The notes beneath the pieces were generated by a model. It was not told where the DNA came from. It did no database searches and saw nothing but the letters and a program-made list of their open reading frames with translations. Source: Minisyncoccota bacterium (GTDB lineage: Bacteria; Patescibacteriota; Minisyncoccia; UBA6257; 2-01-FULL-56-20). From it: DNA of 64,000 bases. A program made the translations under genes and the position numbers. Location: contig JARLIC010000137.1 of the NCBI GenBank assembly GCA_031291905.1, positions 51,762-115,761 on the forward strand, in the 5' to 3' direction. Below are positions 575 through 36,345 of this stretch, piece after piece (the first letter of the stretch is position 1; every line of letters starts with the position of its first letter).

Positions 575-640
575 GGCTAAACCTTCTTCTTGCTTTTCGC
601 CTTGCTTTTCACGGAATTGACTAGAGGTTACCGAACGGAG

Positions 641-3293: not shown

Positions 3294-3308
3294 ATCGACG
3301 CCGACGAG

Positions 3309-3910: not shown

Positions 3911-3942
3911 GGCGTTTACACCCTGGGGAGGATGGTAAATCG

Positions 3943-4578: not shown

Positions 4579-4580
4579 TC

Positions 4581-6941: not shown

Positions 6942-6954
6942 TGGGTCGTCCTCG

Positions 6955-7386
6955 TCAAGATGATCCGTCGCACTCTTCCCAGATCACTTGCCAGACGTTG
7001 AGGATCTTGGCGAGCACTAGATACTGACTACCGCCGACACTGGAAAGCCCCATGTTGTAAGCCTTGATCGGGTTTTCCTGGTCCACCTTAAGCACGCAAT
7101 CCCCGCTGTCGTCGCGAGCCAGTCGGACGGCGTAAACATCCGCTTTCCCGAGCATGCGATTGCCGTCGGCGTCATCTTCGGACGCCGGGATTCCATCTGT
7201 CCCCGATTTGGCGTACATCAGGGTCGGTGCGTTAAGATATACCTGCCTCCCGCTTGGACCCGTCATCATGCCGAGCCCAGGGCCGGGACTTGTTCCAGCC
7301 TGATCCGACACCGCCCGGTTCAACTGGCTGATCGCCTTGGCGAACGGATTCGACGACGCGAATTTGGTGAGCTTTGGGCGAAACAT
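6955..7386 (-). CDS. hypothetical tail protein
   Basis: ORF within the tail operon. Confidence 0.45.
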   Translation of the reverse strand: MFRPKLTKFASSNPFAKAISQLNRAVSDQAGTSPGPGLGMMTGPSGRQVYLNAPTLMYAKSGTDGIPASEDDADGNRMLGKADVYAVRLARDDSGDCVLKVDQENPIKAYNMGLSSVGGSQYLVLAKILNVWQVIWEECDGSS

Positions 7387-8384: not shown

Positions 8385-8396
8385 GCGATATCATCC

Positions 8397-9746: not shown

Positions 9747-10240
9747 GGCGACTCATTCCACGCCTTCTCGGCGTTCTGGCGTTCTTCGAGATAGACTTTG
9801 TATTCGGCGGCGGACCCTATGGCTTTCGCACCGGGCGGTTCCTCGTTCGCGAGACAGACGAGTTGCGGGATCGTGAACCGCGCCAGTTCCCATGGCTTGA
9901 ATTTGCCTTCCTTCATCGCACTGTGGTAGATTTCCCACCAGTTGATTTTCGGCTCGCTCGCCGTTGCCGCCGGGACGCCTGTGAGCCACTCGTTGCGCTG
10001 GGCGGCGTCATGCTCAGCTCGTCGGGTTTTGGGTCGGTGGCCACCATGTCGATGTTCGTCGCCTGGCCGACCATCGCGGCGTCCACCAAGCTCATTTCGG
10101 TGAACAGGGCCTCCGCGTCGGCCTCCGTGAACGTCGGATCGCCCTTGCGGATCGATAGGAACAACGTCTGCTTGACGCCTTCGATCGAGAGCAAGAGCTT
10201 GTCGGCCTCGGGGGTGCCGATCAGGTGTCGCGGCTGGCAC
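9743..10240 (-). CDS. gpT-like extension reached by -1 frameshift from the gpG-like ORF
   Basis: This ORF lies in the -1 frame relative to 9913..10467. The fused product would read ...ATDPK/TRRAEHDAAQRNEWLTGV... Confidence 0.45.
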   Translation of the reverse strand: MPAATPDRHPRGRQALALDRRRQADVVPIDPQGRSDVHGGRRGGPVHRNELGGRRDGRPGDEHRHGGHRPKTRRAEHDAAQRNEWLTGVPAATASEPKINWWEIYHSAMKEGKFKPWELARFTIPQLVCLANEEPPGAKAIGSAAEYKVYLEERQNAEKAWNESP

Positions 10241-19019: not shown

Positions 19020-20669
19020 ATGGCTTGGGATTCAGCGTACTATTCGTCGGTCAACGAAGATCTCTTGCGATTCATCCCGCCGGATAGTAACCGCGTGCTT
19101 GAGGTGGGATGCGGAACCGGGGCGTTGGCCTCGCGGTTCAAGCGGATCAATCCGAAGTGCGTGTACTGGGGAGTGGAGGCTGACCAAGATGCGGGCGAAG
19201 CAGCTCACAATAATCCTGATCTCGATATCATGTTTTCAGAAACAATCGAGCACTTCCTAGGTCGATATCCCACGGAGTGCGAGAATCCCGATTGCGTCGT
19301 ATTCGGCGACTGCCTCGAACACCTTGTCGATCCACACGCCGTTCTCAAGAAATGCGTTGAATGGCTTAAGCCCAACGGCTCCGTCGTCGCCTGCGTTCCC
19401 AATGTTCAGCATTGGAGCGTGATTCAAACACTGATCCAGGGCCAATGGCCTCGAATGGGATCAGGATTGTTTGATGCGACGCATCTCAGTTGGTTCACCA
19501 AGCAAAGCCTGATTGAGATGTTCGAGGCGGCGGGGCTAACTATCGCGAAGATCGTCCCTCGCAATATCGCGCCAGGCGGCGAGCGTCTCATCGACGCCGT
19601 GAAGGAGTTTGGGCTTACCGAGGACGTCGGACGGTTTAGGGAGGGATGCCAGGCGTATCAATGGCTGATCCACGCCGTCAAGGGCGACGTCCCAAGCCGT
19701 AAAGTTCTCATCCGTGGCTTCACCGCCGAAGGATGCTGCGCCCGACCGCGTCTCACGGAGCCGGGCGGAATGATCAATACGATTCCCGGCTTCCGCTACT
19801 CCGAGGTCACGACACAGGTCGAGCCGGGGGAATCCGTGGTCGTTGTACGTCAGCGATTCAACATCACCGAAGCCGCCATCCGCGAACACCTGAAGCACGG
19901 GCAGTTGATTATCGGCGAATGGGACGACGACCCGTGGTACGAAGGGTTCAACGGCAAGCTCAAGACGCCATCCGTCGAATGGGCTCTCAAGGCTTGCCAC
20001 GCGATCCAGGTCAGCACCGAAGCCATCGCCGAACTCGTGCGACCGATCAACCCGAACGTCGCAGTGTTCCCGAATCAGATCGCAGCCGTGGGACCAGAAC
20101 GAGAGTACGTCGAGTCCGACGTAATCCGGGTCTATTTGGGAGGCCAGAGGAATAAAGGCGACTGGGACAAAGTGATCCCCTTCGTCAACGGCATGTCCGC
20201 CGCGAGCCCGGATGTTTTTCACTTCGTCGTCGTGCACGATAGGGATCTCTACCAGGCCCTTGAAACGCATAGGAAGACATTTTACGCCTTCCAGCCTTAC
20301 GAAAAGTATCGGGCCATACTGAGGACGTGCGATGTGACGATTGCTTCTCTAGCCAACACGCGGTTCAATCGGTGCAAGAGCGATATAACCGTAATCGAAT
20401 GCGCGGTGGAAGGCGTGGCCGTGATTCCGTGCAATCCAGAGTCCAGCATGTACACTGAGCTAAGGTCTTGGAAATACAACAAGAAACCAAGCGAGTTCGC
20501 TGAATCCCTTCGCAGCCAGGGACGAAGAGATCGCAGTTGGTCCATCAGCAACCGCATGCTCTGCGACCACTACAAGAAGCGAGCCGCATGGTACGACGGC
20601 TTGCTCGACGACAAGGCTGAATTGGATCGCCAGTTGTTCGAGCGGCTGCCGGAACTTCGTCCTACTTGA
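19020..20669 (+). CDS. class I SAM-dependent methyltransferase fused to GT-B-like glycosyltransferase domain
   Basis: MTase motif I VLEVGCGTGALA and post-I, II and III motifs are present. The C-terminal half has an ..ECAVEGVAVI.. GT-B-like region. GC is lower than in neighbours and the strand is opposite. Confidence 0.65.
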   Translation: MAWDSAYYSSVNEDLLRFIPPDSNRVLEVGCGTGALASRFKRINPKCVYWGVEADQDAGEAAHNNPDLDIMFSETIEHFLGRYPTECENPDCVVFGDCLEHLVDPHAVLKKCVEWLKPNGSVVACVPNVQHWSVIQTLIQGQWPRMGSGLFDATHLSWFTKQSLIEMFEAAGLTIAKIVPRNIAPGGERLIDAVKEFGLTEDVGRFREGCQAYQWLIHAVKGDVPSRKVLIRGFTAEGCCARPRLTEPGGMINTIPGFRYSEVTTQVEPGESVVVVRQRFNITEAAIREHLKHGQLIIGEWDDDPWYEGFNGKLKTPSVEWALKACHAIQVSTEAIAELVRPINPNVAVFPNQIAAVGPEREYVESDVIRVYLGGQRNKGDWDKVIPFVNGMSAASPDVFHFVVVHDRDLYQALETHRKTFYAFQPYEKYRAILRTCDVTIASLANTRFNRCKSDITVIECAVEGVAVIPCNPESSMYTELRSWKYNKKPSEFAESLRSQGRRDRSWSISNRMLCDHYKKRAAWYDGLLDDKAELDRQLFERLPELRPT

Positions 20670-20955
20670 TGATCGCCAGGACGTTCTCTTCTTTCACCAG
20701 AAGCAGCTTCTTGCCGTCGACCTTGAATTCCTCGCCCGCGTACTTCGTGAACAAGACCGTGCGGCCGGGCGAGAAACCGACTTCGATCCGCTCGCCGTTC
20801 GATGCGATCCGACCCGGACCGACCGCCAAAACTGTGCCCTTGTTCGGCCTGTCCTTGGCGACGTCCGGGAGGACGATGCCGCCCTGCGAAACGTCTTCGG
20901 TCGCGTCACGTTCGATGATGCACCAGTCAAGCGTCGGAACGAGAGTCATCAACAA
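20662..20955 (-). CDS. groES: co-chaperonin GroES (Cpn10)
   Basis: GGIVLPDVAKDRPNKGTVLAVGPGR..NGERI...KYAG.E.K.DGK..L..EENVLAII aligns along the full length with the GroES pattern. Confidence 0.85.
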   Translation of the reverse strand: MLMTLVPTLDWCIIERDATEDVSQGGIVLPDVAKDRPNKGTVLAVGPGRIASNGERIEVGFSPGRTVLFTKYAGEEFKVDGKKLLLVKEENVLAIIK

Positions 20956-20965
20956 AACTCCAGGG

Positions 20966-21196
20966 GCCTATGAAATGAGCGATCAGCGATGCGGGACGTG
21001 CGAGCACTTTGGACATGAACCGCATGCCAAAGCAGAGGGATCCCCAGGATACTGCTATCGAATCCAGGAGTATTATTGCCCAGGCCCAGAATTCAAAGAC
21101 CTGGCGTGCGTGTCGGCCGACGTCGGCGGCATCTTTTATTGCCGCCCCGAATTCGGCTGCATTCTCTGGGAAAAGAAGGAGAAGAATGATGAGTGA
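20966..21196 (+). CDS. small Cys-rich protein, paralog A (MSDQRCGTCEH...FGCILWEKK)
   Basis: ATG at 20966. Shares conserved N- and C-termini with two downstream paralogs. Confidence 0.55.
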   Translation, partial: AYEMSDQRCGTCEHFGHEPHAKAEGSPGYCYRIQEYYCPGPEFKDLACVSADVGGIFYCRPEFGCILWEKKEKNDE

Positions 21197-21410
21197 CCAG
21201 CGATGCGGGACGTGTGAGCACTATTGTAGAAGTGATCTACAGGCTGAAGAGAACACGTACGGCACGTGTGATCGAATAGGAACAGAAGGTGGCCCTTGGC
21301 CAAGCGAAGACAATCTGGCGTGCGCTGTCGACAGGCAGGACGGGGCGGATCTTCGCTGCATGCCAACCTTCGGCTGCGTACTCTGGGAATCAAAGGAGTC
21401 AGCGAAATGA
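21186..21410 (+). CDS. small Cys-rich protein, paralog B
   Basis: Start ATGATGAGTGA overlaps paralog A's stop. Sequence MMSDQRCGTCEHY...FGCVLWESK. Confidence 0.55.
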   Translation: MMSDQRCGTCEHYCRSDLQAEENTYGTCDRIGTEGGPWPSEDNLACAVDRQDGADLRCMPTFGCVLWESKESAK

Positions 21411-21691
21411 GTGACCAGCGATGCGGGGCGTGCAATCGATTCGGCGGTCTTCTCAGAAAGGATTACATGAGAGAAGACTATCCAGAGCCTTCTGAGAGAT
21501 TCAGCTTTGGGTACTGCCGAGCGATCAAACTCAATCGAATTCCCAATAGCAATGAACCCAGCGGCGAGCCGGATTGCCTCGCGTTCACAACCGACGTAGA
21601 AGACTATTCAGCAGCATTGATGGTTCGCCCCAATTTCGGCTGCGTCCTCTGGGAGCCTAAACGAACACCGGATCTTCCGGCTGCGGATTGA
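21407..21691 (+). CDS. small Cys-rich protein, paralog C
   Basis: ATGA overlap with paralog B. Sequence MSDQRCGACNRF...FGCVLWEPK. Confidence 0.55.
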   Translation: MSDQRCGACNRFGGLLRKDYMREDYPEPSERFSFGYCRAIKLNRIPNSNEPSGEPDCLAFTTDVEDYSAALMVRPNFGCVLWEPKRTPDLPAAD

Positions 21692-22622
21692 GTTGGCGGC
21701 GTAAATCGTCGTACAAAACCTCTTCCCGCATACTCCGCGTCAGCACGTCCTTCACCGCGTGAACGTATCGCGAGTCCATGCCGTCGAGCCCGGCGGCGTG
21801 GCCGCGAAGGTGGGCGTTGGGCATGATCTCCGCCCATAAGCCGAATTGATCGGCCCAGTTCGGCAGATCGTCCATCATGCCGTCGAGCCACTTCAGGAAC
21901 GACTTCTGCTGCTCGGGCTTCTCGACGAGGTTCTGGCGGTAGGATTCGTTCTTGCCGTGGTGTCGCCAGTAACCGATGCGGACGGGGTCGCAGACGACCT
22001 TGCCCTTGCGGCCCATCGCGGCGAGGATCGTTCGTTCGGTGAACAGGTCGCAGTGCTCGGGCACTTCCGCCATCGCGTCGCGGAAGTCCTGGCCGCACCG
22101 GAAGGCGACGGCGGGCGACAACGCCCAGCTTGTGACGTACGCGAACGGCGTCAGCATGTCGCCGTCGATGACCATCGGCCTGTTCCTGAGAAGGTTCATC
22201 GGCACCAGAGGGCCGACACCGGTGAACCACATCGCAAGGTCTTCGTCTTCGGAGATAGCGAGGATCGCGGTCCACGTCTGTGCATCCGCGAACGTGTCGA
22301 AAGCGATGGTGATCCGCTCGCTGTACCGCTCATGGACGATGTCGTCGTCCTGGCACCACGCGAAGTATTCGGCCCCGTCGTCCATCGCCATCTCGGCGGC
22401 TTCACGCCAGTTCTCCCAGAGGCACGTCGCGTCGGTGCGTCGATGGGAGACGAGCGGGTTGTCTTTGTATTGGTGCATCAACTCGGCGGTCGCGTCCGTC
22501 ATGCCCTGATCGGCGACGAGTATCCGGCATGGCGAGATCTGCCCCAAGAGGCATTCGATCGTCTTGCCGAGGAATTCCGTGCGATCCAGGTGCGGGACGC
22601 CGACCGTGAGCTTGGGATGCAT
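21657..22622 (-). CDS. family-2 (GT-A) glycosyltransferase
   Basis: N-terminus LTVGVPHLDRTEFLGKTIECLLGQ...ILVADQG fits the GT2 start pattern. A DxD-like WCQDDD follows. Confidence 0.6.
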   Translation of the reverse strand: MHPKLTVGVPHLDRTEFLGKTIECLLGQISPCRILVADQGMTDATAELMHQYKDNPLVSHRRTDATCLWENWREAAEMAMDDGAEYFAWCQDDDIVHERYSERITIAFDTFADAQTWTAILAISEDEDLAMWFTGVGPLVPMNLLRNRPMVIDGDMLTPFAYVTSWALSPAVAFRCGQDFRDAMAEVPEHCDLFTERTILAAMGRKGKVVCDPVRIGYWRHHGKNESYRQNLVEKPEQQKSFLKWLDGMMDDLPNWADQFGLWAEIMPNAHLRGHAAGLDGMDSRYVHAVKDVLTRSMREEVLYDDLRRQLNPQPEDPVFV

Positions 22623-22709: not shown

Positions 22710-23168
22710 TCAAAAGAACGTGTTTTCAAGCTGCACATACGCGGCCGTGTCGTTGTACGACGCGGGGGCGTAGTGCTCGACGAAGCCGTTGGCGTGAACG
22801 CCCGCGACTACCGACGCACCGGACACCGACAGGACCGGGAAAAGCCAAGGTCCCGTGCTCTGGTTGCCGAGGAACTCGCCCCGGATCTCCGCGACGAGGG
22901 TTCCGCCCGACGCCGAGGTGGCGGAGGCGAACAACAGGCCCGTGGATGCGACCAGGGTCGACCCAGTGCCGGTCGAAGCCGACGCGGCGTAGAACAGCAT
23001 CCTGGCCGAAGCCGCTCCACCCGAACCGGCGTCCAGGTGGAAAACCATCTTGTTGCGGCCGGTCATGGTCAACGCCGAGCCGATGGACGAGCCGGCGGCG
23101 TAGACGGCGGGGGGCAGTCCGGCGTTCAGCTCGCTGAACACGTCCCGGAACTTGCGACTTGCAAACAT
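22710..23168 (-). CDS. Ala/Ser/Gly-rich structural protein (decoration candidate)
   Basis: 152-aa ORF directly downstream of the capsid genes. Confidence 0.45.
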   Translation of the reverse strand: MFASRKFRDVFSELNAGLPPAVYAAGSSIGSALTMTGRNKMVFHLDAGSGGAASARMLFYAASASTGTGSTLVASTGLLFASATSASGGTLVAEIRGEFLGNQSTGPWLFPVLSVSGASVVAGVHANGFVEHYAPASYNDTAAYVQLENTFF

Positions 23169-23190: not shown

Positions 23191-24690
23191 TTAGGAGCCG
23201 AGCGAAAGCTGGACGAAGGGGGACGTCTTGTAGATCACGCCCGAGGGGGACGTCGACTGACGCGGCCCCATCCACAAGGACTTGCCGTCGTGGCGCTGCT
23301 TCCAGCGATACGCGATCTGGTCGGTGTCGAAGAGGAACTGTTCGCTGATCGCGACTTCGATGCCCGAGCGGTTCGCCACGCCGTACTGCGTGGGGTCGAT
23401 GAGCATGATGTCGCCGGTGCCCGAGACCTCAAGCTTTTCGGTCGTGAAGCGGATCGGCAGGCCGAGCAGGGTGCCCGCAGCCTGATACCGCATGCCGGCC
23501 GACTTGGTCCCGGCGATACTGGAAAGCATCGCGGCCTGGGTGATCTGTGAGTTGGGCTGGAACGCAAGGGTGGTGCCGTCGCGGACGTTAAGAAGTTGAC
23601 TGTAGGTCGCCTGGTGGGCGATGAACATCGCGTTCTTAAGACATGACATATCGAACAAGGCCAACATCGCCTGGAGGTCGGCGAGCTGGATCTTGTTCTG
23701 CAACAGGCGGGTCGCCGTGAGCAACGCCGGGCTCTGGCGGATTCCGGTCGGCTTGCCGGCTCCGTCGCCGTTCAGGAACACGAAGTCCGTCTTGTACGCC
23801 ATCGCCTTCAAAAAGAGGCTCTGAAGGACGGTGGCAGCCGAGATGTAGTTGTCGGCGACGAGGTCGCGGGAGATCTGCGTGTAAGCAGTCTGGTCGACGA
23901 TTTTGTACGTGATCTCGCGAAGCTTCGCGTCGGAAGCCTGGCGTTGGGTCGACTCGCCCTTGTAGAAGACCTGGATGCCGGCGGTCGCCGACGTCTGGCC
24001 GATGCCGGGGGCGAAGTACTGGTCCAGGGCGGGCCAGTGGACTTCGTTGGTCGCCCCGACCGGGATGTTGAAGGCGTACGGCTCGATCAGCGACTCTTCC
24101 ATCGCGATCTCGTTGTAGCCTCCGAGAATCTCCGGCTTCACGAAGTAGCCATAGGCGGAGCCGCCGGAAAGCGATTCACTGCCGGCGCGAGCGACGGCGG
24201 GCGACGCGGTCGACATGGAGCCGTCCCATGTCCGCTCCAGCTTGAAGTGCTCGACGAGCCGCTGGTCGGCGTGGTCGCGTTCGCCCTGAGACGCCGACGG
24301 GCGGGTTCGATAGAGCAGCCCGAGGATTTCGCCAAGGCCGCGACCGATCGCCTTGCCGTCCACGCCGCGATCGGCGGGGGATTCGGTGTGCTCGATCGTC
24401 CCGTTGAACGGAACGCCGTCGTCATCGAACTCCATGCCCTTGGACGGAGGGCCTTTACTGGGCTTATTGCCGCCGCTCTGGAGCGAACGCTTGAGGTCTT
24501 CAAGCTCCTTCGTGATCCCGGCGGTGGCGTCACTGAGTTGGCTGCGGACCATCGCGCTGACGTGGGCCTGAGCGTCGGATTCCTCGGCGAATCCGTACTC
24601 GATGTACCCTCGTGCGACCTTCTCGTCCGCGATATCGATCACATCGCCGGCCTTGTGCTCGTCGATGTTCTTCTTGAGCTTCACAAACAT
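23191..24690 (-). CDS. HK97-fold capsid protein paralog with N-terminal coiled-coil (delta-like) segment
   Basis: DLVADNYISAATVLQSLFLKAMAYKTDFVFLNGDGAGKPTGI matches the HK97 major-capsid signature. Start MFVKLKK at 24690. Confidence 0.7.
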   Translation of the reverse strand: MFVKLKKNIDEHKAGDVIDIADEKVARGYIEYGFAEESDAQAHVSAMVRSQLSDATAGITKELEDLKRSLQSGGNKPSKGPPSKGMEFDDDGVPFNGTIEHTESPADRGVDGKAIGRGLGEILGLLYRTRPSASQGERDHADQRLVEHFKLERTWDGSMSTASPAVARAGSESLSGGSAYGYFVKPEILGGYNEIAMEESLIEPYAFNIPVGATNEVHWPALDQYFAPGIGQTSATAGIQVFYKGESTQRQASDAKLREITYKIVDQTAYTQISRDLVADNYISAATVLQSLFLKAMAYKTDFVFLNGDGAGKPTGIRQSPALLTATRLLQNKIQLADLQAMLALFDMSCLKNAMFIAHQATYSQLLNVRDGTTLAFQPNSQITQAAMLSSIAGTKSAGMRYQAAGTLLGLPIRFTTEKLEVSGTGDIMLIDPTQYGVANRSGIEVAISEQFLFDTDQIAYRWKQRHDGKSLWMGPRQSTSPSGVIYKTSPFVQLSLGS

Positions 24691-24843
24691 GGGGTTCTCC
24701 CGATGTTGTCGTGGGTGTTGACAACGCTCGGCGCGGCGAATCTCCAGTCCGCCGGGGAGTCCGCCGCATCTCGAAGACGGGTCGGGCCGGGAACCTGATT
24801 GCTCGTGCGCTGACACGAAACAAAAACGTGTATTAAGATGTCG

Positions 24844-25884
24844 TTACTTGAGAACGACGAAGGGGCCGGCGGTCTGCGAGCCGTCGGCGATCGTGACGGG
24901 CTGCCTCCAGAGCGGCGAGCCGTCGACCCGGAACTTGAACCGAAAGACCGTACTGTCGGTGTCGAACATGAACTCGTCGGCCGACCGCGTCTCGACGAAC
25001 TCGCCGAGTGACCCACAGGTCACGCTCATGTCGGGGTCGCCGTTATTGTCCACGGTGCGGGCCACGAGGGCGTACTGGCTCCAGTCGCCGACGATCAAAT
25101 CGCCTTGCGTCCCGAGTGCGGGGCACTGTTCGACGGGCAGGAGCGGGCGGCCCTTGAGCAACGGGTACGGGTTGCCGTACATCCCCATCGGCATGTACAG
25201 ATTCGCGGGCCAGCCGGTCGTCGTGGCCACGGCGTCGAGCTTCAGCAGCGTGTCGTCGTTGCACATCCACGCCGCGTTGCGACGGCAGTACGGCCAGAGC
25301 CGGCTCCACATCGTGTCGACGTCGGCCTGTGCGATGTTGTTGGAGCCGTTCCGCGTGACCTGGATGCTGGAGTTGGCCGCGATCACGCCGAGCGGGTGAG
25401 TGATCCCCTTGCCGTTGATCATCGACTCGACGACGGCGTACTGGATTTCCTGGCTTGCGGCGTAGTCCAACATTCGTTCGACGAGCGGGGCGTCGGCGAG
25501 CAGGTCGTTGCTGAACGGCGTGGAAAAGACCATGGCTCGCTTGGGGACGAACTTGATCATCGCCGCCGCCGGCTGGCTGGCGTCCGGCGTGGCCGACTTG
25601 TCGTCGGTCGTTCCCTGCCATCGAACCTTGATGCCGCCGAAGCGAGAACCGGCGACGCGGCTGGTTTCGTCCAGTGCGGGCCACTCGGCTTCGTGCTTGT
25701 TGGTCGTCAGGAAGAGGCATCGCGCCAATGGGCCGTCGATCGCACGAGCCTTGTCCCACACCGACTGGAACAGCTCGGTGTCGAGCAGGAAGCCGCCGTT
25801 GGCCCCGCCGCCGTACGTATTCAGTGCGCGGGTGACGTCCGCAAAGTAACGGACGATCGGATTTCCGCTCTGTGCGGTCGTCAT
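24844..25884 (-). CDS. HK97-fold capsid protein paralog (no delta domain)
   Basis: NDLLADAPLVERMLDYAASQEIQYAVVESMINGKGITHPLGVI carries the same HK97 signature in a second, different sequence. Confidence 0.7.
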   Translation of the reverse strand: MTTAQSGNPIVRYFADVTRALNTYGGGANGGFLLDTELFQSVWDKARAIDGPLARCLFLTTNKHEAEWPALDETSRVAGSRFGGIKVRWQGTTDDKSATPDASQPAAAMIKFVPKRAMVFSTPFSNDLLADAPLVERMLDYAASQEIQYAVVESMINGKGITHPLGVIAANSSIQVTRNGSNNIAQADVDTMWSRLWPYCRRNAAWMCNDDTLLKLDAVATTTGWPANLYMPMGMYGNPYPLLKGRPLLPVEQCPALGTQGDLIVGDWSQYALVARTVDNNGDPDMSVTCGSLGEFVETRSADEFMFDTDSTVFRFKFRVDGSPLWRQPVTIADGSQTAGPFVVLK

Positions 25885-25925
25885 GCGATGCCTCGAAATG
25901 TCAAAGAACTTGCAGAGCGGTGGGA

Positions 25926-27071
25926 TTAAGCTTCGCCGCGAAACCAGCCCTTGAGATCCTGGATGCGTTGCGTGTTGGCCTTCTCGAAGTCGTCGATCGA
26001 CCTGAGAGCTTCCTTCAAGATGTCGTCAAGCGGACGGCCGACGAGCGGGGGAAGGTCGGGCCTGGCATCGACGACGGACTCGACTTCCTTGGCGGCCTCG
26101 ATGAATTCGTCGATGGCGGTTTCGACGGCCGACGCGGTTCGCTCGATCGTTTCGGGCTCAACGGCGGCTTGCGTCGCTTCAGGCTCGGGCTCGGGCGTGG
26201 TTCGTTCGACGGCTTCAGGCTTAACGACAGGGACGGCCTCTTCATCGAGGGACCGCTTCTCTTCGTCCTTCATGCACATCTCGACGTCGTCGCCCGCATC
26301 GTCGTCGGCGGATCGCTTCTTCTTTTTCTTCTTCTTGGTCTCGTCGTCTTCGTCGTCGTCCGGCTCATCGGCCTCATCTTCGTCGTCGTCGACCAAGGCG
26401 CCGCCGTCGGCAAGCGTCGATTCGTTCATGCGTTCGACGGGATCGACGCCGGTCAGTGTTCGCCTGACTTCTTCGGGCTCGTTCATCTGTTCAATGATGG
26501 GGTCCACTAGCGGTTTCACATCCTCGTTAGGGGACCAGAAACCACGCACGACGAGCCTTGCAATTGACCTAAGTTCTTGCTGGCTAAGTGCTTCGGGATT
26601 CCCTGGGACGGCCGTGACACTGTACTCCAGAAGCTCGGACGACCGATAAACCAGGTCGCAATTAGCGAGTTCGGGACGCGATCGAATCTCTTCGCGGGTC
26701 GGGACGCTCGCGTCTTTCGGGAGGATCGAGACCGACCAGCCTCGCATCGTGCCATCGCAATACATGTCGAAAAGCTGGGCCGAAAAATCGTCCTTGCCGA
26801 AAATCGTCTTGGCGAGCAGTCGTTCCGTGTTGTCCTTCTCGACCCGAACCCACTGGTTGCGACCAATCGGAAGCGATCCTCGCAGGGGGTCTTTGCCGTG
26901 CTCGAACAGCACAACGGGGTTGGTCCTGTACGCGACAAGGTCGATGCCTCGCGGCTCGATCACGGTCTTGTAGCGATCGACGGCGCGAGTCCCGATCTTG
27001 GCGACGACGGACCTCTCGGCGGGCTTGACGTCGTCAACGACGGCGGCAAAGGAGCGGATGATTTGATTCAT
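25926..27071 (-). CDS. prohead protease (S78/HK97-type) fused to acidic/Lys-rich scaffold-like C-terminus
   Basis: GTMRGWSVSI matches the GxxxGWSxGF-type S78 motif. The C-terminal half is D/E-rich with a KKKKKKK run and coiled-coil character. Confidence 0.7.
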   Translation of the reverse strand: MNQIIRSFAAVVDDVKPAERSVVAKIGTRAVDRYKTVIEPRGIDLVAYRTNPVVLFEHGKDPLRGSLPIGRNQWVRVEKDNTERLLAKTIFGKDDFSAQLFDMYCDGTMRGWSVSILPKDASVPTREEIRSRPELANCDLVYRSSELLEYSVTAVPGNPEALSQQELRSIARLVVRGFWSPNEDVKPLVDPIIEQMNEPEEVRRTLTGVDPVERMNESTLADGGALVDDDEDEADEPDDDEDDETKKKKKKKRSADDDAGDDVEMCMKDEEKRSLDEEAVPVVKPEAVERTTPEPEPEATQAAVEPETIERTASAVETAIDEFIEAAKEVESVVDARPDLPPLVGRPLDDILKEALRSIDDFEKANTQRIQDLKGWFRGEA

Positions 27072-27109: not shown

Positions 27110-27400
27110 TCAGTCGTTGTCGACGACGAACTGGGGCGGGACGTAGCTCGACTCGACCACGTCCTTCACGGCTTCGGTGCCAGTCGCCGGTGCGTGAAAC
27201 GCACCGAGGTCCGACACCGGGAGCCAGATGCCGTCGATGCGGTGATACATCGCGACCGGGAAAGTGCAGGTGATCACGTCGCCCGGCTTGGCCCTAGCGA
27301 TCTCCGTGACGTTATCCTGGAACTTAGCCCGGTCTTCTGCGGTGAGATGGTCGACCGGCGAGACGAGAAGGGGAGGGGGGAGGGGCATGATCAGTTCCAA
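27110..27400 (-). CDS. hypothetical protein
   Basis: 96-aa ORF. Confidence 0.35.
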   Translation of the reverse strand: MELIMPLPPPLLVSPVDHLTAEDRAKFQDNVTEIARAKPGDVITCTFPVAMYHRIDGIWLPVSDLGAFHAPATGTEAVKDVVESSYVPPQFVVDND

Positions 27401-27960: not shown

Positions 27961-28506
27961 CTACGTATGAAGCACATGGAACGGCTTGCGGACGCCGGCG
28001 CTATGGGCTTCGGCCGCTTCCAGCGACAACAGGATCGCCTTCTCTGGAGACTTGAACCCGTCCGACCGCTTCACTGCGTAGAGGCAACCGAGTGCGATGT
28101 CTTGCCCGCAACCCACGGCGTCATATCGATCCAGCGATTCGCCTACCTGGAAATCCGAATCGATCCTGAACAGCCTTCCTTGGAATCCGACGAGGAAGGT
28201 TCCCGCCGATTCCTGGCCCCTGTCGACGCTGAGATGGCCGGCGGATCGAAACCGTTCCCTTACGGCGTCAACGAATCGAGTCACCATGTACTCGTAAACG
28301 TCGTCGCCTTGATGTAGCTTCGGTGGCGTGAATCCGTAGCGAAGGATCTGGCCCATCCGAAACGATGATGTGAAACCGAACAGCATATCGCCGTTCAGGA
28401 ACACTTTCTCGTCGGACCTGACGGTCAGAGACAAGCCGCCGACTGCGGCACTGTCTCCACCGACATAGACGTCTTTGCCGTAAACCAGTCCGGCTATACA
28501 GGTCAA
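27961..28506 (-). CDS. HslV/proteasome-beta-like Ntn hydrolase
   Basis: N-terminus M-TCIAG..GKDVYVGGDSAAVGG....KVF...D.LFGFTSS and later AVGCGQDIALG parallel HslV (TTIVSV...GDGQ..GN..KVR..GFAGG; AIGSGG). Confidence 0.5.
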   Translation of the reverse strand: MTCIAGLVYGKDVYVGGDSAAVGGLSLTVRSDEKVFLNGDMLFGFTSSFRMGQILRYGFTPPKLHQGDDVYEYMVTRFVDAVRERFRSAGHLSVDRGQESAGTFLVGFQGRLFRIDSDFQVGESLDRYDAVGCGQDIALGCLYAVKRSDGFKSPEKAILLSLEAAEAHSAGVRKPFHVLHT

Positions 28507-28780: not shown

Positions 28781-29587
28781 TCAAGGAGCGACAATGAACT
28801 CTTCGCCGTCATCGCCAAGACGATACGTCAGGTGACAATGGCAATTTTGTCGGCACTGGCGATCGCCAATACTCCTGAGACTTCCGATCGGAACGAAGCC
28901 TCTCGCGGAGTCTTCCAGGCAGTCCCCGCAGTGTTCGGCTTCTCCAAGGACCAAGCGTTCCTGATCGAACACCATGTTCCTGGCGTACGTCGCTCGGGCG
29001 ATCTCTTGCGAGCAGCCCCAGGCGCAGGCACCGTAGGATTCGGCTCGGGCGATGAATTGATTAGCCGTGATCGGTGCGGGGAAGATGAAGACTTCCAGCG
29101 TCTTGTCCGGATTGAAGGGCTGGGGCCGAAGCATGTCGGCCTGGAAGCGATCGAGGTAGGCGTCTTGCGTTACGGCCTGGCGTTCGGCCTGCTGGAGTTC
29201 ATCACTGGTCAAGGCTCGCGGGCCGAGCAAGCCCATCGCACCGGCGACGATCGATTCGCGGACGAAGCCTTTTATCCGTTTGAAGAACCGGCCCGCTTGT
29301 TCACGTAGAGACCGCCCAACTTGCTCATCTTCGGCTGGGCCGAGAAGACTCCGGCCTTCGTTCCAGTCGAGCTGGCTCCTTGCGAACTGCTGGGCTTCAT
29401 GCTTAATCCACGCTTTGGAAAAAGCACGAATGGCTTCGAGAAGGCGAAGACGCTCATGCCCATCGAGTTGCCCCTTGTTGTAGCGTGCGGTCCAGCCGAG
29501 CTTTTTGAGGACGTGTGCGAGGATCGCTTCGGCCGAAGCCGGCTTGTTCGTCAGCCGCTTGCTTCCGAGGGAAGGTCCACGGACCAC
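28781..29587 (-). CDS. Mu F-like head morphogenesis protein
   Basis: Located directly after the portal gene. C-terminal H...CRQNCHCHL resembles the Mu F domain His/Cys motif. Confidence 0.55.
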   Translation of the reverse strand: MVRGPSLGSKRLTNKPASAEAILAHVLKKLGWTARYNKGQLDGHERLRLLEAIRAFSKAWIKHEAQQFARSQLDWNEGRSLLGPAEDEQVGRSLREQAGRFFKRIKGFVRESIVAGAMGLLGPRALTSDELQQAERQAVTQDAYLDRFQADMLRPQPFNPDKTLEVFIFPAPITANQFIARAESYGACAWGCSQEIARATYARNMVFDQERLVLGEAEHCGDCLEDSARGFVPIGSLRSIGDRQCRQNCHCHLTYRLGDDGEEFIVAP

Positions 29588-31209
29588 GGCAGGTGATCGA
29601 AAGGGTCGCGATCCTCACCCTCCGCTAATCCTTCGACTCCATGAAGCTCCGCATCCTCTTGATCGAGGCCGCCATAAGCACCGCGAAGGCCGTCAGTCCC
29701 GCCATGCTCAAGACTTCGATTGCGGCTTGCATTGGGCTTCTTCTTCTTGTCGTCGCCGCCCTTGGCTTTCGGCTTCTTCTTCACGTCCTTGTTGTTGACG
29801 GCCGGGTTCCCGCCGCCTTCGGCCATTCCGATCGCACCGGCGGTGGCCATCTTGATTGTAGCTTCATTCATCTTAACAATCATCGACAGCGGCGACATGG
29901 TGTTCGGAAGAATCGGCTCGTCCCCCCACGGCACCGGAGGGAGGCCGGTTTCGGCGTTCCTCTGGTTGATCGTGATGCTTCCGTTCCTCAGATCCATGTC
30001 GAATATCTTGGTTTCTTGCTCGCGATCGACCTTGAGCGGGTTGTCGAAAGCGAAGAACAGCCGCCGGTCCCATTGCTGGATCACCCGCGTCAACTTGCTT
30101 GCGATCGACATGCACCGGGGGCTGATCGCCTGCTCGGCGTGCATCTCCTTGGCGGCCTGGAGGTTCGCCAGGTTCGTGTCGGTGGAGAAGAACTCTATCG
30201 GCGTGCCCATCGCGGCGCACATCGCCTGCCAGTCGTACTCGGCGATCTTCAGGCCCGAGAGGTCGGTCGGCGCATAGGTCGTCGGCTGGAAGTTCCACAT
30301 CCCGGTCGTGACCAGGATGCCGCCCTGGCGAGAGCGGGCGTGCTTCATGTTCAGTTCTTGCTCGAACTTCAGCCGCTCGGCGTCGCCGGGCATCGCGTTC
30401 GCGTCGGCGGGCGATGCGATCAGGTTGGGACGAGGCCCTTGCGCCAGGAGTTGCTCCTGGACCGACACGAACTTGTCTTCGAGCTTGGCGTACTCGTAAG
30501 CGGCGTAGAGCGGCGGGTACGACGCTCCGTAAGGGTCTTTCAGGCTCACGCCGTGACCGAAGTAGACGATCTCGTCGGGCTCCAGTCGACTGGCGAAATA
30601 CTGGTAGTGCGACGGAATCGGGGTTCCGGCTGCGCGGACCGGGAGGACGTACTGGCTGAACAGCGGCCAGAATTCCGTGTACGGCCTGCCTTCCGGCCCC
30701 TTGGGGGCGAAGTAAGCACGGCCGATGATGTCGCTGTAGAGCGAGATCATTTTGAGGATGTAGACGAGATCGAACATCCCGTACGGATCGGGATTGTTGA
30801 GCGTGTGGAGAAACGGATGCTCGCGAATCTCTCGAATATTCGCGACGTTCGTTCCATTGCTGGGGACGTACCCCGCGTTCCGCATGTGGCAGAACTGCCG
30901 AAGCGAAACCTCTCGCGGGTCGGAGATGTCCTTCGGCTTCTTGCCGTTCGTCGAGTCCATGTACAACTTGAGCGGAACGGAACTGACGGCGTTCGCGTTG
31001 ATGACGGCACAACTGTAGGCGATCGACTTGAAGTGCTCGATCAACTCGACCGGCGAAGGGGCCGGCTTGGACCGCCACGCGTCCGTGGTCGACGGGCCGC
31101 CGATCCACCCGGTGCCGAGAGAGAATCCCCCAGGGGGTCCAGAGGAGCCTTTACGCTCGACACTGAACGCCGATGCGTCGGCCTGGAGTCTTTCGAGGAA
31201 GCTTGCCAA
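29551..31209 (-). CDS. portal protein
   Basis: 552 aa, located downstream of terminase. Acidic/basic C-terminal tail. Central HPFLHTLNNPDPYGMFDLVYILK segment. Confidence 0.7.
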   Translation of the reverse strand: MASFLERLQADASAFSVERKGSSGPPGGFSLGTGWIGGPSTTDAWRSKPAPSPVELIEHFKSIAYSCAVINANAVSSVPLKLYMDSTNGKKPKDISDPREVSLRQFCHMRNAGYVPSNGTNVANIREIREHPFLHTLNNPDPYGMFDLVYILKMISLYSDIIGRAYFAPKGPEGRPYTEFWPLFSQYVLPVRAAGTPIPSHYQYFASRLEPDEIVYFGHGVSLKDPYGASYPPLYAAYEYAKLEDKFVSVQEQLLAQGPRPNLIASPADANAMPGDAERLKFEQELNMKHARSRQGGILVTTGMWNFQPTTYAPTDLSGLKIAEYDWQAMCAAMGTPIEFFSTDTNLANLQAAKEMHAEQAISPRCMSIASKLTRVIQQWDRRLFFAFDNPLKVDREQETKIFDMDLRNGSITINQRNAETGLPPVPWGDEPILPNTMSPLSMIVKMNEATIKMATAGAIGMAEGGGNPAVNNKDVKKKPKAKGGDDKKKKPNASRNRSLEHGGTDGLRGAYGGLDQEDAELHGVEGLAEGEDRDPFDHLPWSVDLPSEASG

Positions 31210-32886: not shown

Positions 32887-33318
32887 TTAGGCGCCGACTT
32901 CGGTCCAGCGTTCGTCGTCCCAATCGCTCGTCATCGCCTCGTAGGTTCCGTCGTGCTGGGCCGGCGGCGGCGGCTGGATATTGTGCTTGGCCCCGTAGAT
33001 CGCCATCGCACGAACGACGAGCGGCGGCGGATTGCCGGTGGTCGCGGTCAGCGTGTCCCACCACTGGTGCGGGCCGTCTCCCTCGATCGCGACCTGGCGG
33101 CAGAAGTCGCACCGGAGGGCGGCCAGATCGTAGCGTCGCAGGAGTCGGGTTGATCGCTGTGTCGACCGGGTGCAGCGAGGGCAGGGGGGGCCGTCGTGCT
33201 TGATCACGACCTGGACTTCATCGTCCGGCACGTCGGCTTCGACGGCTTCAATAATGGCGTCTTCGGCATCGCGGGGCTTCGGGGGACGGCCGCGACGTTT
33301 GGTCTCGATCGTGCTCAT
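32887..33318 (-). CDS. basic zinc-ribbon protein (KRRGRPPKP; CPRC...CDFC)
   Basis: Overlaps the TerL stop by 4 nt. Confidence 0.45.
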   Translation of the reverse strand: MSTIETKRRGRPPKPRDAEDAIIEAVEADVPDDEVQVVIKHDGPPCPRCTRSTQRSTRLLRRYDLAALRCDFCRQVAIEGDGPHQWWDTLTATTGNPPPLVVRAMAIYGAKHNIQPPPPAQHDGTYEAMTSDWDDERWTEVGA

Positions 33319-35864
33319 GCTACCTCTATGTCCGTGTCATGCCACGAGTCGGGCCACCAGCGGGGGTCTTGCCAATCTTGCTGGGCGGCTCGATCTTTTT
33401 CGATCTTCTCCAGCCACGCCCGCTCCAGCCGTTCGCGTTCCATGCGTTCGCGTTCTTCGGGGGGGATGGCGGCTGGGCCACGCTTCTGGACTTCAAGAGA
33501 GGCGTAGGCGAGCACGTCGACTGTGTCGTCGTGGGCACCGTTAGGAAAGGTCATCAACTCGGTTTCGAGGTTGTCGAGTTCCGGGTGATGCTTGGGAAAC
33601 CAAATCTGACCGGCTTCCATGCGTATCTGGGCGTCTACGCTTCGGGCTATTTTATCGACGTTCCCGGTCTTGAGCGACTGGATCGTCAAGCCTTGCTTTC
33701 GAGCCGCTTTAATGACTAGGTTTTGCGCTGCAACATCTTCGATTCCACAATACGACGCCTTGTGCTTGTCCATCATCGCACGAATAGACGGGACGAGCTT
33801 ATCGCCGGTCATCTGTTCGCGATGCATGTCAAGAAGAATCAGGTCGCTGTCCGGCGTCACAGCCCACGCGCCGATGCATGTGTAGTCCGCACTGGTTCTT
33901 GTAGAAAATGCGAGGTCTACCGCCAGGAAAATTCGGCAGTGATCGAGGCTGAATGATCGTGTTTCAAGCCTGATGTAGTTTTCGTGCCGATCATAGTATT
34001 TGAAATCTGATCGCCGAAATAATCCACCACCCTCGGGGGAGGGGCGTTGCTGATACACAGAATTAAAAAGATGTTTTTGGGTTGCTTTGACACGAAGCAG
34101 GTATTCTTCGTTGAAGTGCTCGGGCCAGAGGGCTTCGCCTCGCTTGCGTCCCATCGGATCGTTATCTTCGGCCAAAGCCGGAAGATTATAGACGACCCAT
34201 TCCTCGCCCGTCTCTTTCGCTCGATCCAGGATCTTGCCGACCATGTCGGCTTCATGCCACCTCTGCATGACGACGACGATCGACCCACCGGGCTCAAGCC
34301 GCGTGTACGCGGTTCCGACGTACCAGTTCCAAGCCTTCTCGCGAAGCGTCTCGCTGAACGCATCCTCTTGCTTCTGGACGTCGTCAAGCACAAGTAGGTG
34401 CGCTCCCTTCCCGAGCAACGCGCCCCCCATGCCGACGGTCTGCATTCCGCCGCTGTGGCCCTTGAGCATCCAGCGATCGGCGGCCTTGCTATCCTGGCGG
34501 ATCTTGACTCCGAAGTATTTCTCGCCGTCCTCTTCGATCAGGTCGCGTACCTTGCGTCCCCACTCGGAAGCGAACTCAGCCTCATACGACGCCAGGATCA
34601 CTTTCTTGTCCGGGTTCCTCCCCAGATACCACGCCGGGAAGTACATCGACGTCATTGTGCTATTGCACGTCGGAATCATCGAGCGGCCACACAAAAACAT
34701 GTGGCTCGGTGAGTCGACTTCGATGCAAACAGTGTCGCCGGTTCCGACGTACGTGGCGCCGATGTATCGGTTCGGCTGCTTAACGCCGTCGCGACATCGC
34801 GGCGACTTCCGAGGCGACTTGCAGGCCCCTGCTTTATAGAACATGACGCGGAATTTGGGTCCGCAATCTTTTCCATAAAGCGTAGCTCTTCCAAGTATCA
34901 GGCTCGCCTTGGTTCCGAGTGAACGAACGAGTTCAAGGCAGCCTTCAGCCAATGCTAGGTCTGTCGAGCAAAACTCGACCTGGCCATCCGGAGCGACATG
35001 GCCATCCGTGTCGCAAAGCCCACGAAGCAACTCAAACCTTTGGCTCTCGCTCGCTCGCAGGTATTGGTTCGGGACATGCTTGTTCTTCAGCAGGCCGAGT
35101 TCGCGAAGCTTTCCGCCAAGGCCCATGACCCCAAATACGTTTTCGACCGACCGATCTCTCGTCTCGTAGCCGAGCCGCGAAAGTTCTTCCTTGAACCACT
35201 CAGTATCCAGGCCGTTGCACGTGATGCCGCAGTTCTCGGAGCAGCCGTTTCCAAGCCAAACACCGAGGACGTACGGGTCGATCGGCAAGTCGGCATCGGG
35301 AAGCTGAAGTGCCCCCTGCTTGCGGACCATAAGCCTCTTGTTTCGAGGCTTCGAGAGATAGGCGGTGTCTTTGACGTGGAATATATCGCGAGTCTTCGCC
35401 TTGCTGACGACCCACTCGTGATTTTGGTCGGCGAAGATTTCATCGCCGTCGTCGGTTGTTACTCGGTAGATCGGGCGGTTCTTCCAGACGGGAGACTTTG
35501 CCACAACGTTACAGGGCTGACCGTCTTCATTAAAGACCTGATCGCCCGGCTTCAGTTCCCCTATCGTCGTCCAGCCGGAAGGCGTCGGGATCGGGGTGCT
35601 CAGGGCTAAGGCTTTCCCGTGCCTCGGTGGCACCGTCACAATTAATCGTTTGATCCGGCCCTCCGCCACATCCATCATCTTCTGCGTCAAGAAGAGAAGA
35701 TGTTTCGCCGGCTTCCACTGAAATTCGCTCGAAAGATGTGCATAGTGCGCGGGGCTCAGGTTCGCTATATGCTTCTCTAGGCTGAATCGCTCCTGCGAGT
35801 TGAGTGAGGCCGCCAAGGAGCGTAAGGACTCGATCTGTTGCGGCGTCTCCATTGAGGTGATCAA
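33315..35864 (-). CDS. terminase large subunit interrupted by an intein
   Basis: N-terminal ATPase region runs through the Walker A up to VTVPPRHGK. It resumes as STMTSMYFPAWYLG.. after ~317 inserted residues. C-terminal RNase-H-like nuclease (FLAVDLAFS...DSDLILLD). Confidence 0.85.
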   Translation of the reverse strand: MITSMETPQQIESLRSLAASLNSQERFSLEKHIANLSPAHYAHLSSEFQWKPAKHLLFLTQKMMDVAEGRIKRLIVTVPPRHGKALALSTPIPTPSGWTTIGELKPGDQVFNEDGQPCNVVAKSPVWKNRPIYRVTTDDGDEIFADQNHEWVVSKAKTRDIFHVKDTAYLSKPRNKRLMVRKQGALQLPDADLPIDPYVLGVWLGNGCSENCGITCNGLDTEWFKEELSRLGYETRDRSVENVFGVMGLGGKLRELGLLKNKHVPNQYLRASESQRFELLRGLCDTDGHVAPDGQVEFCSTDLALAEGCLELVRSLGTKASLILGRATLYGKDCGPKFRVMFYKAGACKSPRKSPRCRDGVKQPNRYIGATYVGTGDTVCIEVDSPSHMFLCGRSMIPTCNSTMTSMYFPAWYLGRNPDKKVILASYEAEFASEWGRKVRDLIEEDGEKYFGVKIRQDSKAADRWMLKGHSGGMQTVGMGGALLGKGAHLLVLDDVQKQEDAFSETLREKAWNWYVGTAYTRLEPGGSIVVVMQRWHEADMVGKILDRAKETGEEWVVYNLPALAEDNDPMGRKRGEALWPEHFNEEYLLRVKATQKHLFNSVYQQRPSPEGGGLFRRSDFKYYDRHENYIRLETRSFSLDHCRIFLAVDLAFSTRTSADYTCIGAWAVTPDSDLILLDMHREQMTGDKLVPSIRAMMDKHKASYCGIEDVAAQNLVIKAARKQGLTIQSLKTGNVDKIARSVDAQIRMEAGQIWFPKHHPELDNLETELMTFPNGAHDDTVDVLAYASLEVQKRGPAAIPPEERERMERERLERAWLEKIEKDRAAQQDWQDPRWWPDSWHDTDIEVA
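34662..35612 (-). mobile_element. intein with LAGLIDADG homing endonuclease inserted in the terminase P-loop
   Basis: Hint N-blocks ALALSTPIPTPSGWTTIGELKPGDQVFNEDG and ..IFADQNHEWVV. Two LAGLIDADG motifs: YVLGVWLGNGCS and LLRGLCDTDGHV. C-terminal block ..VCIEVDSPSHMFLCGRSMIPTCN followed by S. Confidence 0.7.
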
Positions 35865-36345
35865 TCTCGATCCTCTGCACGAACATCCCGTGGTACTTGG
35901 CGAGTTTGTCCATCGCCTCGGCCGCGTCGTGGAACTTGACCTCGATCGCGCCGCTCGGGTGGATCTTGAGATCCTTGATCAGGTTGCCCTTCTTGAGCTT
36001 CTTGACCTTCTTCAGGTCCAGCACAGGCTTCTCGATCGGCTCGCCGCTGGAGTCGAGCTTGACGTTGCCTCTGGCGTCCACGTCTTCAACGAACTCGACG
36101 AACTCCATCACGTCCAGTGAGGCGATCGTCGACAGTCGTGCCAGAACCTCGGCGACCGGCATCGCCCCGGATTCTTCGAGCTTCTGTTCGAGGTATCCGC
36201 TGATCACCCTGCTTTTGAGTAGTTGAAAGGCGGCCGACTCAGGATTCGCGTACCCCGCCATCTTCGCGGCTTTGACCGCGTTGTCTTTGGCGTCGCCAAG
36301 GTAGTAGTGGACGAACAGACGTTGGCGGTGGTTGAGCGTCGACAT
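35530..36345 (-). CDS. terminase small subunit
   Basis: N-terminus LNHRQRLFVHYYLGDAKDNAVKAAKMAGYANPESAAFQLLK fits the terminase small-subunit pattern. The 3' 335 nt overlap the TerL ORF in another frame. Confidence 0.65.
   Translation of the reverse strand: MSTLNHRQRLFVHYYLGDAKDNAVKAAKMAGYANPESAAFQLLKSRVISGYLEQKLEESGAMPVAEVLARLSTIASLDVMEFVEFVEDVDARGNVKLDSSGEPIEKPVLDLKKVKKLKKGNLIKDLKIHPSGAIEVKFHDAAEAMDKLAKYHGMFVQRIEIDHLNGDAATDRVLTLLGGLTQLAGAIQPREAYSEPEPRALCTSFERISVEAGETSSLLDAEDDGCGGGPDQTINCDGATEARESLSPEHPDPDAFRLDDDRGTEAGRSGL

Follow-up and report, generated by a model that had tools for sequence, protein, structure and literature searches.

The 64,000-nucleotide stretch analyzed here (the window; positions 51,762 to 115,761 of contig JARLIC010000137.1) carries on its minus strand two adjacent genes for HK97-fold capsid proteins, here termed capA (24844-25884, 346 aa) and capB (23191-24690, 499 aa), preceded by a gene for a probable prohead protease with an acidic tail (25926-27071); all three lie on that strand, at the positions given in the first-pass annotation of this DNA. 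Gene calls and Pfam/PHROG profile searches place them within a complete, phage-type head module, also on the minus strand, in which the order of genes is small terminase (TerS), large terminase (TerL), portal, a 268-aa protein, an HslV-like peptidase, a gp10-like protein, p96, protease, capA, spacer, capB, p152 and a family-2 glycosyltransferase (GT2).

The products of both capsid genes match PF05065 and TIGR01554 above the respective cut-offs of 24.2 and 27.5 bits, with scores of 88 (E=9e-25) and 103.8 bits for capA and of 93.7 (E=1.6e-26) and 111 bits for capB. From alignments of 43 and 37 homologs, AlphaFold2 predicts a full HK97 fold for capA and capB, respectively, with mean predicted local distance difference test (pLDDT) values of 77 and 73. 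The top Foldseek matches of the two models in the PDB are alike (RcGTA, Mycofy1, T5, HK97 and the capsid-forming island EcCI2) and are headed by RcGTA in both cases (6e-16 for capA, 5e-15 for the capB core), 7rwz being also among the capA matches. Both models align over ~300-345 columns with the RcGTA, Mycofy1, T5 and HK97 chains (E 1e-15 to 1e-11), and their target-normalized TM-scores to known capsid chains, computed for predicted structures, range from 0.65 to 0.71. Profile searches of PDB sequences agree with Foldseek for both proteins and, for capB, include HK97 gp5 and T5 pb8 among the matches. Judged from profiles and models, capA and capB are thus both complete HK97-family major capsid proteins (MCPs), in line with the original proposal of two intact HK97-fold genes in tandem. 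Neither is a member of the T4 Gp23 family, PF05065 being the only Pfam family reported for either protein. The two proteins share 25% identity over about 310 residues (E=5e-16), and the capsid signature DAP...NG(D/K)G..P.G that had been ascribed to both is only partly common to them: its loop is present in capA (NGKGITHPLG) and in capB (NGDGAGKPTG), whereas 'DAP' occurs in capA only, capB reading ADNY in its place.

The two proteins differ markedly at their N-termini. In the capA model, the HK97 fold is preceded by residues 1-34, which are of low confidence, and the conserved GGFLL motif at residues 30-34 aligns with RcGTA capsid residues about 94-102. Because this motif is already reached at residues 30-34 and only 34 residues precede the fold, capA is predicted to lack a delta (scaffolding) domain. 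In capB, on the other hand, the HK97-fold core (residues 180-499 plus stop, 23191-24153), which we regard as the ancestral major capsid protein for reasons given below, follows an extension of 179 residues (24154-24690) that is interpreted as a delta/scaffolding domain. The mechanical open reading frame (ORF) of capB extends to a GTG at 24816, but the ATG at 24690 is taken to be the real start because it is preceded by a GGGAG Shine-Dalgarno sequence, because homologs begin with MF(V/I)KLK and because the upstream stretch corresponds to a conserved RNA element. The AlphaFold2 model resolves the extension into a folded domain (residues 1-37), a 32-residue helix (40-71), a disordered linker (72-116) and two short helices (119-148), so that the N-terminal extension noted at the outset is real but is not the plain coiled coil it had been taken for. 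All capB orthologs carry it, those of genomes with a single capsid gene included, and it evolves faster than the core (34-55% versus 49-64% identity). Full-length T5 pb8 (458 aa) is collinear with capB in a weak profile alignment, and no separate scaffold ORF is found between the protease and capsid genes. This architecture is interpreted, with the help of the predicted structure, as that of a delta-domain (self-scaffolding) MCP of the HK97 gp5/T5 pb8 type, in which the extension would be cleaved off. A likeness of residues 1-37 (24580-24690) and the long helix to ribosomal protein L9 was noticed by eye only and was set aside, no Pfam match being obtained even at E<=10.

The order protease-capA-spacer/leader-capB-p152-GT2 recurs in nine further, independent contigs of metagenomic or viral origin (L001, L002, L009, L022, L023, L024, L026, L027 and L029), at identities ranging from 70% down to 51% for capA and from about 60% down to 43% for capB, and matching entries in the capA and capB homolog lists suggest at least 13 tandem contigs. 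The cores of capA and capB are conserved alike across these loci (66/64, 53/50 and 52/49% identity) and about as well as the portal (50-62%); neither gene is decaying, and the possibility that one of them is a pseudogene or a truncated copy is ruled out by their being intact and conserved in at least 10 loci. More distant relatives present a single capsid gene, which is always of the long capB type, as in L003/L004 (36% identity), L005/L006 (40%) and a contig from a Phycisphaerales metagenome-assembled genome (MAG) (L031, 29%), the latter being the single distant match of a scan of genome contigs. These five loci encode the same protease (about 48% identity), p152 and GT2, and capA, which is present only in the tandem subclade, is not found in them. 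Because the more distant relatives have capB only, capB is the single capsid protein with which the lineage started; as the only capsid gene in L003-L006 and L031, it can presumably make whole capsids alone in those genomes. A longer A-domain loop of capB, considered as a possible mark of hexamer specialization following the arrival of capA, is also present in the single-capsid relatives; it predates capA and was discarded as such a mark. Cultured relatives with the tandem were looked for in a collection of annotated phage genomes and none emerged: 11 records match capA and 101 match capB, each at a single place and, in the records listed for both searches, at the same gene. Literature searches for further phages with a pair of HK97 capsid genes returned only T4, SaPIbov5 Ccm and the two-component encapsulins.

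The first-pass annotation had described capA and capB as paralogs in the sense of the T4 pair, and this description does not hold. Pairwise, capA scores 244 bits against P0088 and 171 against P0094, but at most 122 against any capB, while capB scores 194 bits against P0033, a protein with a long N-terminus, and at most 93 against any capA. In a neighbor-joining tree of 57 HK97 domains (100 bootstraps), capA and capB are each monophyletic (96/100 and 100/100), whereas their joint monophyly is never recovered (0/100); capA groups instead with P0088/P0089 and capB with the long-N-terminus MCPs P0033/P0034, in both cases with 100/100 support. Unrelated head modules have P0088 and P0090 as their only capsid genes. 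Lengths of 538-570 aa are found for several other relatives of capA, one of which bears a prohead-protease domain (PF04586) as well. Pairwise scores and distance-based tree agree on separate origins; together they rule out a local tandem duplication, and capA and capB are best called xenologs, with capA acquired from a different capsid lineage.

Within the 153-nt spacer between capA and capB lies an element whose conservation exceeds that of the proteins on either side. A single copy of the exact motif ATCAGG-N3-4-CCG-N3-CGA-N5-CTTCGAG is present in the window (24770-24799), as in each of the tandem loci, within a conserved structured RNA of ~90 nt (24725-24814, minus strand) that forms the 5' leader of capB and is delineated by RNAalifold and covariation; a small hairpin (ACACG..CGTGT, 24813-24831, minus strand) lies just upstream. 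The RNAalifold consensus of eight loci is an outer helix enclosing a hairpin, with 91% of cells paired, as against 34-47% in slid-partner controls, and with compensatory changes in 15 of 25 pairs, as against 1-4 in the controls; none of 500 shuffles reaches the observed values. The folding energy is not unusual (z=-1.1) and was dropped as support, which comes from covariation instead. With the covariance model, a single copy is recovered per genome and in every case it directly precedes capB, also in the single-capsid loci L005, L006 and L010; the model has no match in L003/L004, and the element has no Rfam match. A scan of metagenome contigs for the exact motif yielded 11 matches, all of them chance occurrences in unrelated DNA, as was one of seven matches in viral contigs (L025). 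The element is the ancestral 5' leader of capB, upstream of which capA was inserted. Candidate functions are translational control and mRNA stabilization or processing, and it may represent a new kind of cis-regulatory element acting on the expression of a capsid gene. An intrinsic terminator that might set the stoichiometry of the two proteins was sought in the gap and none was found, so that capA and capB are probably co-transcribed. Stop-codon readthrough from capA into capB was also considered, given that the capA TAA and the capB ATG are in frame in the window, with 51 sense codons between them, and was rejected: with spacers of 163 nt in L001 and 161 nt in L002, the two genes are out of frame there, and the in-frame spacing is thus a coincidence.

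The protease gene upstream of capA encodes an N-terminal domain (residues ~1-190), a long acidic, lysine-rich linker and a conserved C-terminal helix. It matches phrog_11321, a family of unknown function, at E=6e-13, and the protease/scaffold part of the protease-MCP fusion model NF045541 weakly (E=3e-5, far below the cut-off), and it has no Pfam match, PF04586 included. Residues His58 and Ser113 are invariant in five orthologs, and a 42% identical homolog in L028 matches the head maturation proteases of phrog_80 at E=2e-5. Of the protease-scaffold fusion proposed earlier, the long acidic tail is evident, and the assignment as protease draws on weak matches and on the invariant His58/Ser113; by these sequence criteria the product is probably a prohead protease. 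Its N-domain is 49-57% identical in tandem and single-capsid relatives alike. Two small genes accompany the capsid genes. The product of p152 (22710-23168, minus strand) is conserved and rich in Ala, Gly and Ser; it follows capB in every tandem and single-capsid locus that reaches past capB, the plasmid-like L010 included (28-87% identity), has no Pfam, PHROG or NCBIfam match and is possibly a capsid accessory protein. The small protein p96 (27110-27400, minus strand), encoded between the gp10-like and protease genes, also lacks any family match; tblastn detects it in L001, L002, L009, L022, L023, L026, L027 and L029, that is, only in loci that also have capA, and not in L003-L006 or L010, an absence that is weak evidence for so short and fast-evolving a protein.

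Two further contigs carry one capsid gene of the tandem type each. The first (L030, identical to L028; JGI Ga0133944_1003558, region 1989-10141) harbors an element integrated next to a tRNA-Leu gene, with an integrase, an Xis-like helix-turn-helix (HTH) protein, a protease from the same family as that of the window (42% identical) and, as the only capsid gene seen on a contig that ends 3 kb upstream of it, a gene of the capA type. The stretch from the capsid gene to the integrase holds only three small genes, none of them a tail gene, and the adjoining chromosome carries Planctomycetota-style genes (a GFO/IDH/MocA oxidoreductase and a 3-keto-disaccharide hydrolase). The capsid protein of L030 nests within the phage capA clade (0/100 basal), and the element has the look of either an unusual prophage or a satellite with head genes only. 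The second contig (L010; Logan DRR438466_22394, 1-10117) encodes ParA, a ribbon-helix-helix (RHH) protein, a replication initiator and an HTH_17 protein, followed by the leader, capB and p152; no portal or protease is visible on this incomplete contig, capB is its only capsid gene and the protein nests within the capB clade of the tandem phages. Either capA and capB can each build a shell alone, or L030 and L010 are satellite-like elements that provide one capsid component and depend on a helper, and we take this alternative as a lead. Such single-gene copies suggest capsid piracy in an unrelated bacterial phylum; to our knowledge, capsid piracy has so far been documented mainly in staphylococcal and enterobacterial systems.

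Codon usage offers an indication of the relative abundance of the two proteins. The effective numbers of codons (Nc) of capB and capA are 34.5 and 36.1 in the window and 43.6 and 47.9, 31.6 and 43.8, 30.1 and 37.1, and 31.5 and 35.1 in four related genomes, capB presenting the lowest Nc of the head module in all five. The capB core is moreover the most codon-biased of 28 window genes and capA the next among the large ones. Codon bias thus weakly favors capB as the most abundant protein and, by the same measure, capA would be no trace component.

Taken together, the most plausible reading is that of a two-protein shell with a vertex specialist, although not in the arrangement first envisaged, in which the long downstream gene would code for the additional or vertex protein. 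The evidence points in the opposite direction, since capB is the sole capsid protein of L003-L006 and L031, is preceded by the ancestral leader and shows the strongest codon bias in five of five genomes. The parallel drawn with T4 genes 21-22-23-24 is likewise partial: the capsid pair does follow a protease/scaffold gene, but its two genes stand the other way round, the short, added one preceding the long one. In this reading, capB is the original major capsid protein, with a delta-like domain of ~180 residues that would serve as built-in scaffold and be removed by the upstream protease, and capA, coming from another capsid lineage, was inserted between the protease gene and the capB leader and has been kept since then under purifying selection. 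Labor would then be divided within one icosahedral lattice, as with T4 gp24 and SaPIbov5 Ccm, with capB as the hexamer-forming bulk of the shell and capA in a minority position, for which the eleven pentameric vertices are the most likely choice. The choice of capA as the better vertex candidate and of capB as the bulk protein follows from analogy with T4 and Ccm and from parsimony, capA being a newcomer without a delta domain. Co-assembly of capA and capB in some form, whichever the roles, seems rather probable to us, and the specific assignment of capB as major self-scaffolding subunit and of capA as an added, probably vertex, subunit of one shell is put forward tentatively, as somewhat short of an even chance. 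What the analysis shows is two intact HK97 genes of separate origin in conserved synteny, capB as the ancestral one, and the RNA leader; co-assembly, processing of the capB extension and vertex position are what we infer.

Several points weigh against this assignment. The strong codon bias of capA (Nc 36.1 versus 34.5 for capB) and its conservation, which is at least as high as that of capB, are unexpected for a protein present in 55 copies. No sequence feature that would separate a hexamer from a pentamer specialist was found in capA or capB, the trees are neighbor-joining trees of proteins with only 25-40% identity, and co-assembly, stoichiometry and cleavage are all deduced from the genes. 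Lastly, the occurrence of the capA type alone in L030 and of the capB type alone in L010 implies that each may build a shell by itself, which leaves room for two particles.

Part of this evidence would fit a two-component shell with reversed or mixed roles, with capA, scaffolded by the protease tail, as the main lattice and capB at the vertices or in scaffolding, or with mixed or position-specific hexamers like those of the irregularly tiled two-component encapsulin. The gene capA holds the canonical place, right behind the protease/scaffold gene, slightly exceeds capB in conservation and ranks next to it in codon bias among the large genes; p96 is detected only alongside capA, and the acidic linker of the protease measures 326-383 aa in tandem loci but just 279-294 aa in single-capsid relatives; mixed HK97 shells are, besides, known to exist (PMC11071501). 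However, the single-capsid relatives share the C-terminal helix of the protease and differ only in its low-complexity linker, capB is both the ancestral sole MCP and the most codon-biased gene of the head module in five of five genomes, and in each of the two known phage precedents it is the added protein that sits at the vertices (PMC9958956, PMC8569155), so that we consider an exchange or mixing of roles unlikely.

A further explanation, in our opinion quite an improbable one, starts from a traffic of such capsid genes among phages and satellite-like elements: capA would have been captured from a satellite or would serve to counter satellites, for instance by pre-empting a size-redirecting capsid homolog, and would not be required for shell geometry itself. 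It would account for the capA-type MCP of the tRNA-Leu element L030, nested in the phage capA clade, and for the ParA/RHH/replication-initiator element L010, with only leader, capB and p152 and its capB nested in the phage capB clade, and it has a parallel in SaPIbov5 Ccm, a satellite-encoded capsid homolog (PMC8569155). Yet L010 and L030 are only putative satellites on incomplete contigs (L030 ending 3 kb upstream of capA), the nesting of an element gene within a phage clade makes phage-to-element transfer at least as likely, and a structural role, too, would lead one to expect long-term purifying selection at a fixed position of the head operon; unlike Ccm, moreover, the capA of the window does not lie on a satellite but inside a complete phage head operon with conserved synteny. 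Finally, that capA (with the protease tail as scaffold) and the self-scaffolding capB build alternative capsids in separate particles, of another size, for other cargo or under other conditions, appears about equally improbable, for although capB stands alone in L003-L006, L010 and L031 and capA in L030, and each has a plausible scaffold of its own, a single portal, a single terminase and a single protease are seen in the 64-kb window, strict adjacency and co-orientation across about 50% divergence fit one assembly line better and no phage precedent turned up in the literature searches. Returning to the two-protein shell with capA at the vertices, it can be extended to a clade of Planctomycetota-associated phages with a chimeric capsid of two origins, in which a hexon/penton division arose independently of T4, the second protein is exchanged with satellite-like elements such as L030 and L010 and the leader RNA sets the relative output of the two genes; this fuller picture is speculative, and we would not expect it to hold in its entirety.

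The remaining genes of the head module and its surroundings are phage-like as well. Upstream of the capsid region, TerS (35530-36345, minus strand) and TerL (33315-35864, minus strand, 849 aa) are followed by the portal gene (29551-31209, minus strand), the next gene after the portal encoding the conserved 268-aa protein. TerL contains a LAGLIDADG domain (residues 275-322) ahead of the main ATPase-domain match (Terminase_6N, residues 402-622), and this segment looks like an intein or a homing-endonuclease insertion; in L002, the terminase is called as two genes. Homing-endonuclease-like genes are also seen in the head modules of the relatives, at sites that differ between loci: a product with a GIY-YIG-like N-terminus, recognized by eye, in L001 (861-2036, minus strand), an HNH_3 protein in L009 (10376-11185) and a faint NUMOD3 match in L002 (13291-13908). 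Their scattered distribution indicates frequent mobile-element traffic in the head region. The HslV/proteasome-beta-like peptidase (27961-28506, minus strand; phrog_1040), located between the portal and gp10-like genes, was found in no related locus and is a window-specific candidate, by sequence, for a second protease, and the gp10/neck-like gene lies between it and p96 on the same strand.

Downstream of the capsid genes, GT2 (21657-22622, minus strand) follows capB-p152 directly in the tandem and in most single-capsid loci, and a methyltransferase fused to a weakly glycosyltransferase-like region (19020-20669, plus strand) is kept in the tandem loci; the two genes suggest glycosylation of the virion or capsid. 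Between the GroES gene and GT2, a small Cys-rich ORF is present on the plus strand, opposite to the head genes, in three tandem copies (~20990-21691), each of which starts with MSDQRCG(T/A)C.. and ends with ..FGC(I/V)LWE.K. The GroES/Cpn10 co-chaperonin is phage-encoded (20662-20955, minus strand), ~2 kb from the capsid genes, and very codon-biased (Nc 32), and no homolog was detected in the fetched flanks of the relatives. In T4, the GroES-like co-chaperonin gp31 is needed for the folding of gp23. Other phage-like genes of the window, besides the GroES homolog, code for a DnaN clamp, a C5 methylase, an RNA ligase and ThyX. The 119-kb parent contig is labeled in NCBI as part of a Candidatus Pacebacteria MAG. 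This label is doubtful because the GC content of the window is ~60%, because the sole genome match is the Phycisphaerales MAG and because the host genes adjoining L030 are of a kind usual in Planctomycetota and similar phyla. Most probably the label reflects a binning artifact, and the head module probably belongs to a large uncultured tailed phage of Planctomycetota.

In nearly all tailed phages, a single capsid protein tiles both the hexamers and the pentamers of the shell, and the separate vertex protein of T4 is the textbook exception, explained by gene duplication. Pentamers of T4 gp24 are formed by a protein ~20% identical to gp23; the major protein has a long propeptide and loses 65 residues, the vertex protein a short one and loses 10, and the vertex protein is regarded as a derived copy (PMC9958956). 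Mutants that bypass gp24 indicate that the ancestral protein can in principle do both jobs (PMC9958956). The pair described here resembles gp23/gp24 in that two adjacent HK97-fold genes of ~20-25% identity follow a protease/scaffold gene, one product having a long and the other a short N-terminal region, and in that the window encodes a GroES homolog, comparable to gp31. In contrast with T4, both proteins belong to PF05065/TIGR01554, no Gp23-family match is reported, and a foreign MCP was acquired with no local duplication; the scaffold would consist of the delta-like domain and the protease tail, with no gp22 core, and capA is only a putative vertex protein. No T4 structure is among the 50 Foldseek matches listed for either model.

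The other precedents differ from the window in distinct ways. In SaPIbov5, the incoming capsid homolog Ccm occupies the pentamers together with the capsid protein of phage phi12 (PMC8569155; PDB 7rwz). Like Ccm, which joins the shell of a resident protein, capA is a divergent HK97-fold homolog of apparently foreign origin, and as a foreign capsid homolog it resembles Ccm; unlike it, capA is phage-encoded and syntenic in a phage head operon in at least 10 loci, while Ccm is satellite-encoded and alters capsid size and shape against the phage. With HK97 gp5 and T5 pb8, capB shares family, fold, a long N-extension and a position downstream of a protease with no separate scaffold gene, and the single-capsid relatives L003-L006 look like ordinary systems of the HK97/T5 kind. 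Taken alone, then, capB appears from its sequence to be an ordinary HK97/T5-type capsid protein with a delta domain, cleavage of which is putative; the window differs from those systems in adding a second MCP without delta domain and a structured RNA leader before capB. In a similar vein, the two-component Family 2B encapsulin is built by HK97-fold proteins that are encoded by adjacent genes and co-assemble (PMC11071501), an arrangement that parallels the two adjacent shell-protein genes of the window; encapsulins, however, are cellular nanocompartments without portal, terminase or DNA packaging, whereas the window holds a complete phage head module, and no match to the encapsulin family is reported for capA or capB.

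A 2026 review describes multi-gene shells as rare (PMC13185644). The capA/capB arrangement is a rare one and suggests a T4-like two-protein shell of independent origin. If this is true, it would be a second such case, within the ordinary HK97/PF05065 family, and would show that a two-component HK97 shell can come about through horizontal transfer of a foreign capsid protein; it would also provide related one-gene and two-gene systems in which to ask about five-fold versus six-fold fit and shared scaffolding. As far as can be judged from the genes, of all known systems the capA/capB pair would work most like T4 gp23/gp24, yet its two proteins are neither a duplicate pair nor members of the Gp23 family.

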